DNA from: an uncultured Chromatiales bacterium
GTDB taxonomy: Bacteria; Pseudomonadota; Gammaproteobacteria; SZUA-140
DNA: 53,728 nucleotides
Assembly: GCA_964384095.1 (NCBI GenBank)
Contig: CAYLKC010000002.1
Coordinates: 1 to 53,728 of the forward strand
Direction: 5' to 3'
Part shown: piece by piece, positions 5,494-42,001 of the stretch
Position numbering within the stretch: the first letter of the stretch is position 1
Layout: every line of letters starts with the position of its first letter
Notes under the pieces: generated by a model
Database searches by the model: none
What the model was told of the DNA's origin: nothing
What the model saw: the letters and a program-made list of their open reading frames with translations, nothing else
Program-made: the position numbers and the translations under genes

Positions 5494-5547
5494 TTCGCAC
5501 AACGCGCGGAGACAGCGAACCGCGCATCGACGTCGCAGCAGTGGTAA

Positions 5548-5654
5548 GCAGGGTCTGGACGGCCTGTGTTCAGGACACGCGTAAATACGTCCCTGTAGCT
5601 CTCGGCCGCATCCCTGCGGCCGAAGGTCCTGAACACAGGCCGTCCAGACCCTGC
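5548..5654 (+). repeat. hairpin element A: 29-bp perfect arms plus a 49-nt REP-like loop (GTAG + GGCCGC-ATCCCT-GCGGCC)
   Basis: Arm 5548-5576 is the exact reverse complement of arm 5626-5654. The loop is homologous to the loops at 5710-5758 and 40935-40987. Confidence 0.9.
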
Positions 5655-5680
5655 CGCGAGCGCGTGCCACAGCCGCAGGT

Positions 5681-5787
5681 CGCCACGTCCCGCCTTCCGT
5701 TGCCATGACCTTCCGCCGCAGGGATGCGGCGGGGAGCTACATGGATGTATTAACGCGAGTCATGGCAACGGAAGGCGGGACGCGGCG
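5681..5787 (-). repeat. hairpin element B: 29-bp arms (1 mismatch) plus a 49-nt REP-like loop, inverted relative to A
   Basis: Arms 5681-5709 and 5759-5787 pair at 28/29 positions (24 contiguous). The reverse complement of the loop matches loop A at 42/49 positions by hand count. Confidence 0.9.
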
Positions 5788-5853
5788 GCCGGGAATATGG
5801 CAGAACGCTTTATGCGGACAGCAGTCGATGCGGTCCTCTGCGCACAGGGCGTC

Positions 5854-12457: not shown

Positions 12458-12494
12458 TCGGGGTCAGGCCCGGATCTCCCGGCCCTGACCCCGA
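12458..12494. terminator. GC-rich hairpin between convergent genes (candidate bidirectional terminator)
   Basis: tcggggtcaggcccgg / ccggccctgaccccga form a 16-bp stem with 1 mismatch and a 5-nt loop. There is no U-tract. A second 7-bp stem lies at 12493-12512. Confidence 0.4.
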
Positions 12495-38624: not shown

Positions 38625-38631
38625 GCTGGTT

Positions 38632-38810
38632 TGCATTATTCATGATCCGCACGGACTTTCAGCAGGGCCTTGGCGGGTTTTGTCTTTTCAGGAGCCTGCG
38701 AGACAGGATGTCTCGCCGGCAGCCCCCAGGGATGGGTTCATGGCGGTCCTGAAAAGACAAAACCCGCCAAGGCCCGGATCCCTCGAATACCCGAGTTTAT
38801 GAATAATGCA
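38632..38810. repeat. hairpin element D: inner 29-bp perfect arms (38665-38693 / 38747-38775) plus a 53-nt loop, nested inside an AT-rich 12-bp outer inverted repeat
   Basis: gggccttggcgggttttgtcttttcagga and its exact reverse complement form the inner arms. The outer pair is tgcattattcat / atgaataatgca. The element fills the folK / SDR convergent spacer. Confidence 0.85.
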
Positions 38811-38812
38811 GG

Positions 38813-39654: not shown

Positions 39655-40839
39655 ATGCCGGATACCCCGAGCACACTCCCCGAACCCGACGCCGATGCCC
39701 GCGCGCACGGCGAGCGCGTGACCGCGCATATCAGGGATGCGATCGCGGTCGCCGGTGGCGCGATCCCGTTCGCGCGCTACATGGAACTCGCGCTGCATGC
39801 ACCCGGCCTCGGCTATTACAGCGCCGGCAGCGCCAAGTTCGGCGAGGCCGGCGACTTCGTCACCGCGCCGGAGCTGTCGCCGCTGTTCGCGCGCTGTCTC
39901 GCCAGGCAGGCCCGCGAGATCCTCGCGGCGCTCGGTGACGGCGGTATCCTCGAGGCCGGCGCCGGCAGCGGCGTCATGGCCTGCGAACTGCTCGCCGAAC
40001 TCGAACGCCTCGACGCGCTGCCGGCGCAGTACGCGATCCTCGAGCTGAGCGCCGACCTGCGTGAACGCCAGCGGGCATTATTCATGCAACGCATCCCGCA
40101 GTTGCTGCCGCGCATCGCGTGGCTCGACCGCCTGCCGGCGCGGGGCTTCACCGGCCTCGTCATCGCGAACGAACTGCTCGACGCGATGCCGGTGCACCGC
40201 GTCATCGCCGGCCGCGATGCCGAGGAATACGTCTGCTGGCGCGACGGTCGCTTCTCCTTGACCGAGGGGCCGCTGTCCGATGTGCATCTCGACCTGCGCG
40301 TCGATGCGCTGTATCGCGAACTCGGCCGCGAGCATTTCACCGCCGGCTATCGCATCGAGATCAATCTCGCGATGGAGGCGTGGATCGCGGCGGTCTCGTC
40401 CGCACTCGAACGCGGCGCGATCCTGCTCGTCGACTACGGTTACCCGCGTCGCGAGTACTATCACCCCGAGCGTGCCGGCGGCACGCTGATGTGCCATTAC
40501 CGCCACCGCGCCCACGGCGACCCGCTGATCCTCGCCGGCCTGCAGGACATCACCGCGCACGTCGATTTCACCGCCGTCGCCGAGGCCGCGGTCGCGCACG
40601 GGCTCGCGGTCGCCGGCTATACGACGCAGGCGTATTTCCTGCTCGCGAGCGGCCTGCAGGAGATCGGCTCGACGCTTGGTGAGCTGCCGGCCGTAGAGCG
40701 TATGCAGATCGCGCAGCAGATCCGCCGCCTGACCCTGCCGGGCGAGATGGGCGAGAAATTCAAGGTGATCGCGTTGACGCGCGGGCTGGAGATGCCGCTG
40801 AGCGGCTTTTCGCTGCGTGACGAGCGAGGACGTTTATAA
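39655..40839 (+). CDS. class I SAM-dependent methyltransferase, MidA/NDUFAF7 (DUF185) family
   Basis: 394 aa. FARYMELALHAPGLGYYSAGSAKFGEAGDFVTAPELSPLF...LEAGAGSG is typical of MidA. Confidence 0.8.
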   Translation: MPDTPSTLPEPDADARAHGERVTAHIRDAIAVAGGAIPFARYMELALHAPGLGYYSAGSAKFGEAGDFVTAPELSPLFARCLARQAREILAALGDGGILEAGAGSGVMACELLAELERLDALPAQYAILELSADLRERQRALFMQRIPQLLPRIAWLDRLPARGFTGLVIANELLDAMPVHRVIAGRDAEEYVCWRDGRFSLTEGPLSDVHLDLRVDALYRELGREHFTAGYRIEINLAMEAWIAAVSSALERGAILLVDYGYPRREYYHPERAGGTLMCHYRHRAHGDPLILAGLQDITAHVDFTAVAEAAVAHGLAVAGYTTQAYFLLASGLQEIGSTLGELPAVERMQIAQQIRRLTLPGEMGEKFKVIALTRGLEMPLSGFSLRDERGRL

Positions 40840-40860
40840 GGAGATCGGGTGACAGCGCCG

Positions 40861-41060
40861 GATCAAAGGGGCCGGAGTCGTTTGATCCATTGAGCACAGT
40901 GGCTTAAGCCGGTGGTTCCTCTTCGTTACGGGACACGCTGTTAATACATCCATGTACGCTCACCGGCCGCATCCCTGCGGCCGGAAGGTCCCGTAACGAA
41001 GAGGAACCACCGGCTTCGGATAGATCCTGCAGGAATCAAACGACTCCGACCCCTTTGATC
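40861..41060 (+). repeat. hairpin element C: inner 29-bp perfect arms (40906-40934 / 40988-41016) plus a 53-nt REP-like loop, nested in a 26-bp outer inverted repeat (1 mismatch)
   Basis: aagccggtggttcctcttcgttacgggac and its exact reverse complement form the inner arms. The loop acgctgttaatacatccatgtacgctcaccggccgcatccctgcggccggaag is homologous to loops A and B. The outer pair is 40861-40886 / 41035-41060. Confidence 0.9.
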
Positions 41061-41062
41061 CC

Positions 41063-42001
41063 TCAGCCGACCGCTTCGCCCGCCGCCTGCAGGTCGGCGT
41101 GGTACGAGGAGCGCACCATCGGACCGCTGGCGACGTTGGCGAAGCCGAGCCCGCGCGCGATGTCGCCGAGGCGGTCGAATTCCTCCGGCGTCACGTAGCG
41201 GTCGACCGGCAGGTGATGCTTGCTCGGTTGCAGGTACTGGCCGAGCGTCAGCATGTCGCAGCCGTGCGCGCGCAGGTCGCGCATCACTTCCTCGATCTCC
41301 TCGAGGGTCTCGCCGAGGCCGAGCATCAGCCCCGATTTGGTCGGGATCCGCGGATGCCGTTCCTTGAACAGTTGCAGCAGTTTCAGCGACCACGCGTAGT
41401 CGGCGCCAGGGCGCGCCTTGCGGTACAGGCGCGGCACGGTCTCGAGGTTGTGGTTGAAGACGTCGGGCGGTGCCTTTTCCAGCAGCGCGAGCGCGACGTC
41501 CATGCGGCCGCGGAAGTCCGGCACCAGCACCTCGATGCGGGTCTGCGGGCTGAGTCGTCGCACGGCGCCGATGCAGTCGACGAAGTGGCCGGCGCCGCCG
41601 TCGCGCAGGTCGTCGCGGTCGACCGAGGTGATGACGACGTACTTCAGCCCCATCGCCGCGATCGTGCGACCGAGATTCTCCGGCTCTTCGGCGTCGAGCG
41701 GGCCCGGCTTGCCGTGGGCGACGTCGCAGAACGGGCAGCGCCGCGTGCAGATGTCGCCCATGATCATGAAGGTCGCGGTGCCGTGGCCAAAGCACTCGCC
41801 GAGGTTCGGGCACGAGGCCTCTTCGCAGACCGTATGCAAACGGTGCTCGCGCAGGATCGTCTTCAGGCGCGCGACGTTCGGGCTCGCCGTGCTGCGCGCC
41901 CGGATCCACGGCGGCTTGCGCTGCGGCGTCTCGGTGGGGACGACCTTGACCGGGATGCGGGCGACCTTGCCGGCCCCGCGCAATTTTTCGGGTGTGCTCA
42001 T
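41063..42001 (-). CDS. lipA: lipoyl synthase
   Basis: 312 aa. [13 protein letters not shown] and the radical-SAM motif CTRRCPFC are the LipA signature. Confidence 0.96.

Follow-up and report, generated by a model that had tools for sequence, protein, structure and literature searches.

Palindromic repeats of the REP, BIME, ERIC and REPIN types are abundant, and their roles at the level of the host are debated. In the BIME (RIP/RIB) of E. coli, inverted REPs surround a conserved central motif bound by IHF. IS elements target REPs, and IS1397 and ISKpn1 target the loops of PU sequences; these elements are autonomous, encode a transposase and insert at the centre of the palindrome. CsrA/RsmA is a global regulator of carbon metabolism, motility, biofilm formation and virulence. 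SELEX and structural studies have given its recognition consensus (PMC4347634, PMC6849547), and the binding sites of the CsrA homodimer occur in pairs (PMC4333381). CsrB, CsrC, RsmX/Y/Z and RsmU are encoded by single-copy sRNA genes, promoter-driven or processed, that contain many GGA sites; RsmU of Xanthomonas is a 3'UTR-derived GGA RNA able to bind RsmA, in a genus without CsrB/RsmY/RsmZ homologues (PMC7694677). By the same kind of reasoning as is used here, the TwoAYGGAY motif (Rfam RF01731) was proposed to bind CsrA (PMC4333381). The REPINs of the REP-RAYT system (Bertels & Rainey 2011, PMC3116915) are intergenic, multi-copy hairpins of about 100 nt, chromosomal and vertically carried, found mainly in Gammaproteobacteria, with singlet/doublet dynamics, excision that leaves short remnants and a one-strand signature.

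The palindrome beside lipA described here lies in a window that is the whole 53,728-nt stretch of DNA analysed, from an uncultured Chromatiales bacterium. It is nested, with one copy (D) of a hairpin repeat enclosed by a doublet of a second small repeat (Table 1). The hairpin unit measures about 115 nt, with a stem of ~29 bp and an apex of ~52 nt. It resembles REPINs in all the traits listed above; however, its centre is what is conserved, as an apex with twin GGA loops, and it is sometimes found inside REP doublets without being one itself. Like BIME/RIP-RIB, it is an intergenic palindromic mosaic, often at 3' ends, whose arms flank a conserved asymmetric centre that is here a predicted protein site, but its sequences are different, it has neither the IHF consensus nor conserved REP arms, and it is not in E. 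coli. As with IS1397 and ISKpn1, nesting arises when the element enters an older palindromic repeat at its dyad centre or loop, although the hairpin is a 115-nt non-coding element. With CsrB, CsrC, RsmX/Y/Z and RsmU it shares GGA in hairpin loops, dimer-spaced pairs of sites and a Gammaproteobacterial range, whereas it is dispersed, with one dimer-site per copy, in either orientation and without its own promoter or terminator, and has no sequence or covariance-model similarity to CsrB or RsmY/Z. The TwoAYGGAY motif also has two GGA-hexaloop hairpins within a poorly conserved external stem, but the RF01731 model gave no match to copy D at E up to 10, and the motif was put forward as a candidate sRNA from Clostridia and gut metagenomes (PMC4333381), whereas the element here is an interspersed genomic repeat with a 29-bp stem.

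The initial annotation had read the locus as a doubly nested copy of a single hairpin element. One palindromic unit does lie inside another, the lipA-midA spacer being 44, 13 and 17 bp in relatives with the same gene order and 223 bp here, but the outer arms are from a second repeat family (ATCAAAGGGGTCRGAGTCGTTTGATC), not from that of the hairpin. The inner arms are as first reported, 29 nt long, 100% complementary and 53 nt apart, and the 53-nt centre is indeed homologous to those of A and B. The outer inverted repeat has the single mismatch ascribed to it (96%) but a length of 27 nt instead of 26, and it ends 1 nt, not 3 nt, from the lipA stop codon. The spacers between outer and inner arms are non-complementary, as had been noted, with 19 and 18 nt against the 27-nt arms. 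Neither arm sequence recurs within the window, the chance expectation being 0 matches. The inner hairpin folds with a z-score of -11 and the entire nested structure with one of -14, and an independent metagenome contig matches positions 40542-41346 exactly, which confirms the assembly.

Table 1. Positions of the parts of the nested locus, its neighbouring genes and the remaining hairpin copies in the window (scores in bits are from the covariance model)
Feature	Position	Strand	Remarks
Methyltransf_28 (MidA-like) methyltransferase gene	39655..40839	+	stop codon TAA 40837-40839; orthologues in relatives
Left outer unit	40860..40888	+	29-mer GGATCAAAGGGGCCGGAGTCGTTTGATCC, small palindrome; first 27 nt are the outer inverted repeat arm
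Outer inverted repeat	40860..40886 / 41035..41061		arms of 27 nt
Left spacer	40889..40905	.	not complementary to right spacer; missing from the empty site of L121
Copy D, model match	40903..41019	+	102 bits
Inner left arm, copy D	40906..40934	+	29 nt; all pairs of the stem covary across the family
Conserved apex (core), copy D	40935..40987	-	53 nt; minus-strand fold is a Y-shaped tip with two hairpin loops
Apex loop CAUGGAUG within UACAUGGAUGUA	complement of 40945..40956	-	
Apex loop CAGGGAUG	complement of 40970..40977	-	stem 40963-40969 / 40978-40984
Inner right arm, copy D	40988..41016	+	29 nt
Right spacer	41017..41031	.	not complementary to left spacer
Right outer unit	41032..41061	-	inverted 29-mer with one extra base; minus-strand reading identical to the L121 unit (GGATCAAAGGGGTCGGAGTCGTTTGAT)
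lipA (lipoyl synthase)	41063..42001	-	stop codon 41063-41065; 100% self-hit; relatives named lipoyl synthase at 94-85% identity
Copy A	5548..5654	+	29-bp perfect arms, 49-nt core; model match 5545-5657, + strand, 96 bits
Copy B	5678..5790	-	32-bp arms (94% complementary), 49-nt core; '+ then -' pair with A; model match 5678-5790, - strand, 91 bits
Outermost inverted repeat around A and B	5523..5832	.	arms 5523-5531 / 5824-5832; ~27 nt in relative
Copy C	38665..38775	-	29-bp perfect arms, divergent 53-nt core (GAGACAGGAUGUCUC and CCCAGGGAUGGG on + strand); model match 38662-38778, - strand, 85 bits
Outer inverted repeat around C	38632..38643 / 38799..38810		12 bp

Within the window the covariance model recovers A, B, C and D and no others, in agreement with the four copies first noted; the centre of C is more divergent than had been implied. 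The family is large and, in the sample searched, confined to Gammaproteobacteria, with 160 or more copies spread over more than 120 loci from many orders. A pattern scan gave at least 120 loci, all gammaproteobacterial, from Legionellales to Enterobacterales to Lysobacterales, and the covariance model gave 143 matches in 100 loci; the viral contigs, plasmids and E. coli genomes scanned had no family matches. There are up to 5-6 copies per 8 kb, and 5 of 142 clusters overlap a called gene. Neither the window nor the elements in 16 related loci have a gathering-level match in Rfam, and at E up to 10 generic miRNA-precursor hairpin models alone appear, well below their thresholds. Literature searches for the core, the 29-mer unit and CsrA-binding repeats found no prior description. 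The 115-base hairpin repeat is widespread and apparently undescribed so far.

The unit of duplication is the whole hairpin, and its core is multi-copy in metagenome contigs. The apex is conserved across orders, while the stem sequence drifts with its pairing maintained, the changes coming in both arms together: compensatory changes were found in 36 of 42 pairs, and the arm sequences of A, B, C and D have almost nothing in common. Conservation is in this way inverted with respect to the usual repeats, the apex being conserved and the arms variable, and the copy termini are weakly conserved (a GCCGGTG...CACCGGC tendency). An origin of the arms as inverted duplications of the target is ruled out by a weak family-wide arm consensus (CCGG..., CTTTYC, RGGAC), and arms common to within-genome subfamilies also speak against it. 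No clear direct duplication was found at D, C or A, where a 3-nt GTC repeat at the A junctions is all that is seen, and no parent IS was found for the hairpin family.

The short lipA-midA spacers of close relatives (13-44 bp) indicate that copy D is a lineage-specific insertion; its sites are empty in these relatives, and it was evidently inserted recently. Each outer arm extends to a full 29-mer, itself a small palindrome (GGATCAAA-13 nt-TTTGATCC), with a right copy one base longer that on the minus strand is in native orientation and identical to the unit of the closest relative at this site (L121). The existence of the outer unit without the hairpin had been named as possible evidence for nested insertion, and L121 has precisely this, a single copy at the orthologous site. 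An outer repeat that proved to be the end of another, well-known IS or MITE had been named as a refutation; its membership of a different and widespread family comes close to this, although no published name was found for the family in the literature search. The 29-mer (ATCAAAGGGGTCRGAGTCGTTTGATC) is present in 29 metagenome loci, usually as inverted doublets with a centre of 0-10 nt, and in these loci the hairpin family never lies beside it. In other lineages, a second-layer outer inverted repeat surrounds 12 of 65 copies, against 3 of 189 flank-swapped controls, and copies are preferentially located at the dyad centre of pre-existing palindromes; copy C also has such an enclosing repeat (Table 1). 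The outer units and the hairpin do not form one repeated composite, as metagenome contigs show single-copy depth for both the spacers and the outer units; Sedimenticola composites with differing spacers also argue against it.

On one strand, here called the GGA strand, the apex is predicted from motif, structure and strand to be a double CsrA/RsmA site. Two small hairpins form there, each with CANGGANG in its loop, at a distance of about 23 nt. Among 102 copies, 89 carry CANGGANG twice on a single strand, and in 100 the opposite strand lacks it; from one motif start to the next there are 21-25 nt (mode 23), UACANGGANGU is present in 77 copies and the full SELEX 12-mer in 14. The spacing of these twin-motif sites falls in the range permissive for one CsrA/RsmA dimer. 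The motifs matching the CsrA/RsmA consensus (CANGGANG / RUACARGGAUGU) sit in the loops of covarying stems. The alignment holds 107 copies, 63 of them chosen by a pattern forcing both loop motifs, and the other 44 constitute the unbiased evidence. In these 44, conservation is highest in the two loops (C.TCC.TG), and the mini-stem around loop 1 covaries (TAC/GTA, CCC/GGG, CAC/GTG, TCC/GGA). Within the loops, variation is limited to the two N positions of CANGGANG. For resident copies, a conserved core could be the product of ectopic gene conversion between copies and not of selection.

The mismatches of the outer stem are unequally distributed, with 150 A.C against 57 G.T on the strand opposite the GGA strand (p = 8e-11), which indicates that they are wobble pairs on the GGA strand; the latter is also the more stable fold in 91 of 102 copies. 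A single-stranded DNA intermediate could explain this asymmetry equally well. In RNA-seq of M. buryatense both strands are transcribed, and the GGA strand of the apex is 2.4-3.4 times higher in depth summed over copies, an excess dominated by one subfamily; discrete transcript ends were not seen in these data, in which reads pile up from many copies. The orientation of copies is unrelated to the flanking genes, being random for single copies (20:21) and without signal with respect to the majority gene strand (37:42) or local GC skew (65:56). This randomness is unlike the expectation for an RNA selected for transcription in one sense.

Here it is proposed that the hairpin is a palindromic repeat of Gammaproteobacteria, non-autonomous, chromosomal and passed on vertically, and that D was placed at the centre of an inverted 29-mer doublet already present at the lipA/midA junction. 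The element would act through one particular single strand, on which the apex would present two small hairpins with loops C-A-N-G-G-A-N-G, spaced by ~23 nt and in one case of the form UACANGGANGU. When transcription covers it, in a 3' UTR or by intercistronic read-through, the GGA strand would clamp one CsrA/RsmA dimer per copy on top of a long, nuclease-resistant stalk, and hundreds of copies may constitute a distributed CsrA/RsmA buffer or CsrA-dependent 3'-end stabilisers. The perfect arms would most simply result from arm-to-arm templated correction, through hairpin-templated repair or template switching. Taken as a whole, with both the lineage-specific insertion into the doublet and the CsrA/RsmA clamp, we judge this explanation of D to be probable, if only just.

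As regards the order of nesting, the outer repeat may instead have grown around the hairpin, if D was inserted beside a single 29-mer that a later template switch during replication (quasipalindrome extension) copied in inverted form to the other side. This agrees with the one 29-mer unit that the closest relative carries at lipA/midA, with the single-copy depth of the outer unit in the source community and its absence elsewhere in the 54-kb window, with the unique, non-REP outer inverted repeats around other copies (L112 and L075), and with the templated arm correction and spacer inversion at the A/B junction. However, inverted doublets are the normal state of the 29-mer family, and the hairpin sits nearly at the dyad centre (C and L112 are similar), a position in keeping with insertion into the middle of a doublet that was already there; growth around the hairpin is possible, though we are inclined to doubt it. 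A different view concerns the predicted CsrA site and takes the family as REPIN-type mobile DNA only, in which a chromosomal transposase of the HUH/RAYT type reads the apex hairpins and moves the element as single-stranded DNA; the likeness to CsrA sites would be coincidental and any RNA effect a by-product. The intergenic, multi-copy hairpin of ~110 nt, chromosomal, vertically carried and not in plasmids or viruses, agrees with the published features of REPINs (PMC3116915). The wobble asymmetry would be the one-strand signature, and orientation is random relative to transcription; copies lie within true GTAG-type REP doublets in Sedimenticola and in a Legionellales MAG, and a possible excision footprint is seen at the A site in the closest relative of the present genome (L125), which there has only GCAGGGTCCGGACCCTGC, equal to the outer ends of A's arms joined. 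Conservation is, however, the reverse of that of REPINs, which have conserved REP arms and a variable spacer, and the apex is kept across orders, whereas REP sequences are lineage- and RAYT-specific. Also against mobility as the sole explanation, the stem foot has no conserved GTAG/GTGG, the GTAG of the core being a covarying mini-stem (GTA, GGG, GTG, GGA), the loops vary at the two N positions of CANGGANG and nowhere else, and orientation has no bias with respect to the GC-skew strand. No transposase is found between oppositely oriented copies 1.4-1.8 kb apart, where the genes are of housekeeping type (aroA, cmk, fba and cbpA), and no mobilising enzyme was seen in the 8-kb loci and the 54-kb window. 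We consider this reading unlikely.

The hairpins could also be bidirectional terminators or 3'-end stabilisers, in which the stem would stop or protect converging transcripts and the apex sequence would be irrelevant. The initial annotation pointed this way from the position of all four window copies between convergent genes, which is correct (acyltransferase/KsgA, folK/SDR and Methyltransf_28/LipA); members of the family are found at 3 of 7 convergent junctions in the window and at 0 of 42 others (p = 0.002). As a rule for the family it fails, since 45 of the 80 classifiable clusters are at tandem, 22 at convergent and 13 at divergent junctions, although an enrichment of ~1.9-fold at convergent junctions persists (27.5% vs 14.5%, p = 0.002) and, together with the counts from the window, supports the terminator or stabiliser role. 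So do the median position of copies 35 nt past the upstream stop codon, their very stable hairpins (-82 kcal/mol) and the different palindromes at the same convergent junctions in relatives, which suggest that some hairpin is favoured there. The canonical signature of the bidirectional termination first envisaged is missing: a U-rich tract (6 or more T among the 8 nt past the hairpin, whichever strand is read) follows 3 of 99 copies, with a background of 1.4%, and there is no terminator-like site within 40860-41061, which rules out a canonical terminator. Mostly at tandem junctions, in either orientation and without U-tracts, the copies are not canonical terminators, and a function of the stem only leaves the asymmetric apex shared across orders and the strand-specific wobble unexplained. 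A role as terminator or stabiliser in this sense is very unlikely.

If the CsrA/RsmA clamp proposed here is real, many Gammaproteobacteria may hold hundreds of self-propagating hairpins as a distributed CsrA/RsmA buffer, a missing antagonist where CsrB/RsmY/RsmZ are absent, with a strand switchable by inversion; this extension is tentative and rather doubtful. It would bear on Csr/Rsm antagonism in lineages without a known sponge sRNA, and the level of free regulator would depend on pervasive transcription across hundreds of loci. A locus would change from the binding to the non-binding strand, or back, by inversion between its perfect arms or its enclosing repeats. The family is in any case unlike REP, BIME, ERIC and REPIN in its cross-order conservation, in having the loop and not the arms conserved, and in a loop that matches the CsrA/RsmA motif position by position.

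Leaving CsrA aside, the family provides a clean natural case of concerted evolution of hairpin arms. Copy B has an orthologue in L125, and all three arm changes between them (3/3) are mirrored in both arms, while the core is 48/49 identical and the spacer, which is inverted in its entirety, 88.8% identical. The stretch that carries A and B has opposite orientations in this genome and in its closest relative, and the A/B junction spans 360 bp here against 25-28 bp at the empty sites of relatives. At the C junction (folK/SDR), relatives have other palindromes. These comparisons of orthologues reveal that palindromes at the 3' ends of genes turn over rapidly, become nested and are inverted; in the one further pair found, orthologous Pantoea copies are 113/116 identical, compared to 86% in their flanks.

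The initial annotation had placed the hairpin by lipA (copy D) within an outer inverted repeat, and this arrangement was recovered. Its inner arms (40906-40934 and 40988-41016) lie 53 nt apart and are perfect reverse complements over 29 nt; the outer repeat has the single mismatch described, its length being 27 nt (40860-40886 and 41035-41061) instead of 26. The spacers between outer and inner arms are non-complementary, and neither arm has a second occurrence elsewhere in the window, where none was expected by chance either. The segment 40542-41346 is matched exactly by an independent metagenome contig, and single-strand folding against shuffled sequences gave z = -11 for the inner hairpin and -14 for the whole nested structure. 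No promoter-like or terminator-like site was found within D.

Positions in the window of the four hairpin-family copies and of the genes flanking copy D
Feature	Position	Strand	Score, covariance model R1 (bits)	Remark
Copy A	5545-5657	+	96	
Copy B	5678-5790	-	91	
Copy C	38662-38778	-	85	
Copy D	40903-41019	+	102	
Methyltransf_28 (MidA-like) gene	ends 40839			flanks the spacer with D
lipA	stop codon 41063-41065			flanks the spacer with D

Three relatives with the same gene order were reached through LipA homologues, and their lipA-midA spacers are 44, 13 and 17 bp, compared with 223 bp in the window. The closest relative (L121, LipA 94% identical) has GGATCAAAGGGGTCGGAGTCGTTTGATCC exactly once at this site and no hairpin, corresponding to the outer repeat unit without the inner one, a state which, according to the initial annotation, would be evidence for nested insertion; in the window the unit flanks the insert on both sides in inverted orientation. 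The nested insertion is supported; the outer layer, however, is not hairpin element but a second small palindromic repeat family, ATCAAAGGGGTCAGAGTCGTTTGATC (window 40860-40888 and 41032-41061; L121 3940-3968 and 6005-6083; metagenome loci L128-L156), and copy D of the hairpin family occupies, almost exactly, the dyad centre of that family's doublet. The ATCAAAGGGGTCAGAGTCGTTTGATC units turn up widely in metagenome contigs from soil, marine and other sources (47-70% GC), for the most part paired as inverted doublets around a 0-10-nt centre; 5 kb can hold as many as nine units (L129). The ATCAAAGGGGTCAGAGTCGTTTGATC family does not reach high copy number in the window genome, the hairpin family was never seen beside its units in the metagenome scan, and no published name for it was found. 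The folK/SDR junction of L121 also carries a 29-mer doublet, with a 31-nt centre; the folK reading frame enters one unit, which supplies the stop codon (L121 6063-6083).

Such nesting is common elsewhere too: outer inverted repeats enclose 12 of 65 hairpin copies, as against 3 of 189 flank-swapped controls. Their arms differ by lineage; in Sedimenticola (3 of 3 copies) and for one copy of a Legionellales MAG they are genuine GTAG-type REPs. The copies between inverted GTAG-type REP units (e.g. GTAGGCCGGGCTTCAGCCCGAC; L034 5170-5430 and 500-760, L037 5955-6215, L001 3700-3960) physically tie the hairpin family to classical REP doublets. The outer repeat of copy C is 12 bp, with spacers of 21 and 23 nt, and the insertions at the C and D sites are recent.

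The four window copies have homologous centres although their arm sequences are unrelated, and R1 found exactly these four in the window and 143 copies across 100 loci, with up to 5-6 per 8 kb. A DNA pattern made from the centre was searched in viral contigs, where it had no match, and in one-genome-per-species contigs, where at least 120 loci matched. The matches listed are all from Gammaproteobacteria, including Legionellales, Methylococcales, Chromatiales, Thiotrichales, Marinobacter, Microbulbifer, Halopseudomonas, Shewanella, Oceanisphaera, Pantoea, Lysobacterales, Steroidobacteraceae and others. A search at blastn sensitivity found the family in none of 5,426 E. coli genomes and 72,556 plasmids; no Rfam family matched the window or 16 related loci, a permissive threshold returning only generic miRNA-precursor hairpin models. 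Nearly all pattern matches share one anatomy, a centre of about 52 nt between arms, often perfect, of roughly 27-31 bp. Other copies consist of the core and lack the long arms (L012 598-661, L053 1637-1748, L117 6425-6484, L118 65-122, L044 595-644); additional hairpins of GGA type (CCAUGGAUGG, GCAGGAGC) and a run of U follow some of them, and these copies could be degenerate copies or sRNA-like derivatives.

RNAalifold on 60 copies gave 42 pairs; compensatory changes occur at 36, and covariation is seen throughout the 29 pairs of the long stem and in the inner hairpin. Because the search pattern held two 8-mers invariant, conservation was judged on 44 model-detected copies outside the pattern selection, in which conservation of at least 90% is confined to two C-N-T-C-C-N-T-G blocks and short stretches beside them. 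In the same copies, the first 8-mer is enclosed by three covarying base pairs (TAC/GTA, CCC/GGG as in copy C, CAC/GTG, TCC/GGA, TAT/ATA), indicating that both 8-mers are loops of small hairpins atop the long stem, with a predicted Y-shaped apex. The family is thus a large and apparently new hairpin repeat, restricted in this sample to Gammaproteobacteria, whose twin-loop apex is conserved and whose stem evolves in concert.

On the opposite strand the loops read C-A-N-G-G-A-N-G, the first within UACANGGANGUA. They fit the RsmE/CsrA optimum A/U-CANGGANG-U/A (PMC6849547, citing Schubert 2007) and the CsrA SELEX consensus RUACARGGAUGU, in which a hairpin loop presents GGA (PMC4347634, citing Dubey 2005); the two variable loop positions coincide exactly with the two N positions of the consensus. 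Two CsrA-type motifs are present on this GGA strand in 89 of 102 full-length copies, separated by 21-25 nt (mode 23), and the other strand has none in 100 of the 102. Paired GGA hairpins had earlier been the basis for proposing CsrA binders, since CsrA is a homodimer (PMC4333381).

The same strand is singled out by an independent feature, the wobble asymmetry of the outer stem. Across 107 aligned copies, the outer-stem cells that depart from Watson-Crick pairing are, read on the pattern strand, A.C/C.A in 150 cases versus G.T/T.G in 57 (p = 8e-11), which places the wobble pairs on the GGA strand; since the alignment came from a model of the other strand, a bias introduced by it would oppose this excess. 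The GGA strand has the more stable fold in 91 of 102 copies, a difference that is partly a constant property of the core, and could be RNA or single-stranded DNA. Stranded RNA-seq of M. buryatense showed depths in the thousands over repeat units on both strands (flanks about 10), and 84-87% of repeat reads continue into other sequence, so that this depth is a sum across many copies. GGA-strand RNA, likewise summed over copies, is 2.4-3.4 times higher over the apex and 3' half, an excess stemming partly from one strand-biased subfamily, and no discrete transcript ends were seen at the repeats; these data weakly support the GGA-strand reading. The RNA-seq strain lacks the repeat at L097 6688-6920, having 34 other bases there, so close strains or species differ in carrying the element.

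Here it is proposed, from motif and predicted fold, that the conserved apex on the wobble-signature strand may be a bidentate CsrA/RsmA site. The taxonomic range of the family fits the Csr/Rsm system and was counted in favour, and a precedent is RsmU, a 3'UTR-derived GGA RNA that binds RsmA in Xanthomonas, a genus without CsrB/RsmY/RsmZ homologues (PMC7694677). Orientation was counted against it, being random with respect to transcription: the split among single copies in tandem spacers is 20:21 relative to the genes, and no relation was found to local GC skew (65:56) or majority gene strand (37:42). In the leading alternative reading, the family is a REPIN-like single-stranded-DNA element with an apex that a transposase recognises. 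The family has many properties in common with such elements; however, the defining REP features and the conservation of the apex across orders speak against this reading. A hairpin family with a CsrA-like apex appears to have no earlier description known to us; it is a finding wider than the nested copy and directly testable.

Adjacent copies are polar, '+ then -' 12 times and '- then +' twice (L023, L027, L042, L059, L066, L069, L072, L076, L080, L085, L090, L100 and window 5548-5790), the first order holding for A and B (5548-5790) and for each of the six pairs that lie at convergent junctions. With genes called by a self-trained codon-usage caller and copies placed by nhmmer, 5 of 142 clusters overlap a called gene, and the 80 classifiable clusters are tandem (45), convergent (22) or divergent (13). 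The restriction to convergent junctions noted initially holds in the window (3 of 7 convergent versus 0 of 42 other junctions) but does not extend to the family, in which the bias is modest, about 1.9-fold (27.5% versus 14.5%, p = 0.002). The reading as a terminator between convergent genes is weakly supported; a U-rich tract follows the hairpin on either strand in just 3 of 99 copies, and the family has no terminator signature.

The A/B spacers of relatives L126 and L127 are empty sites of 25-28 bp, and L125, a locus of the L121 genome, has a 286-bp spacer with one B orthologue. The plsC/ksgA spacer including B is inverted between the window (5524-5846) and L125 (2830-3062), with colinear gene ends, and the inverted segment is bounded by the outermost inverted repeat, 9 nt in the window and about 27 nt in the relative. 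The B arms differ from the orthologue at three positions, all mirrored in both arms, and the core at 1 of 49, with a spacer divergence of 11%; in a Pantoea orthologous pair the elements are identical at 113 of 116 positions versus 86% in the flanks. At the A site (window 5548-5654), L125 has only GCAGGGTCCGGACCCTGC (about 2855-2872), an 18-nt perfect palindrome identical to what joining the outermost 8-9 nt of each A arm would give, possibly an excision or slippage footprint, or a short palindrome whose centre A entered. The folK/SDR junction has a different palindrome in each of four genomes (L121 5999-6063, L122 5937-6002, L123 5942-5962, window 38625-38812), indicating rapid hairpin turnover at that gene 3' end. 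The convergent junction 12439/12511 carries a plain 16-bp hairpin, TCGGGGTCAGGCCCGG / CCGGCCCTGACCCCGA (12458-12494), whose GGGGTCAG motif resembles the 29-mer family and the L122 and L123 palindromes.
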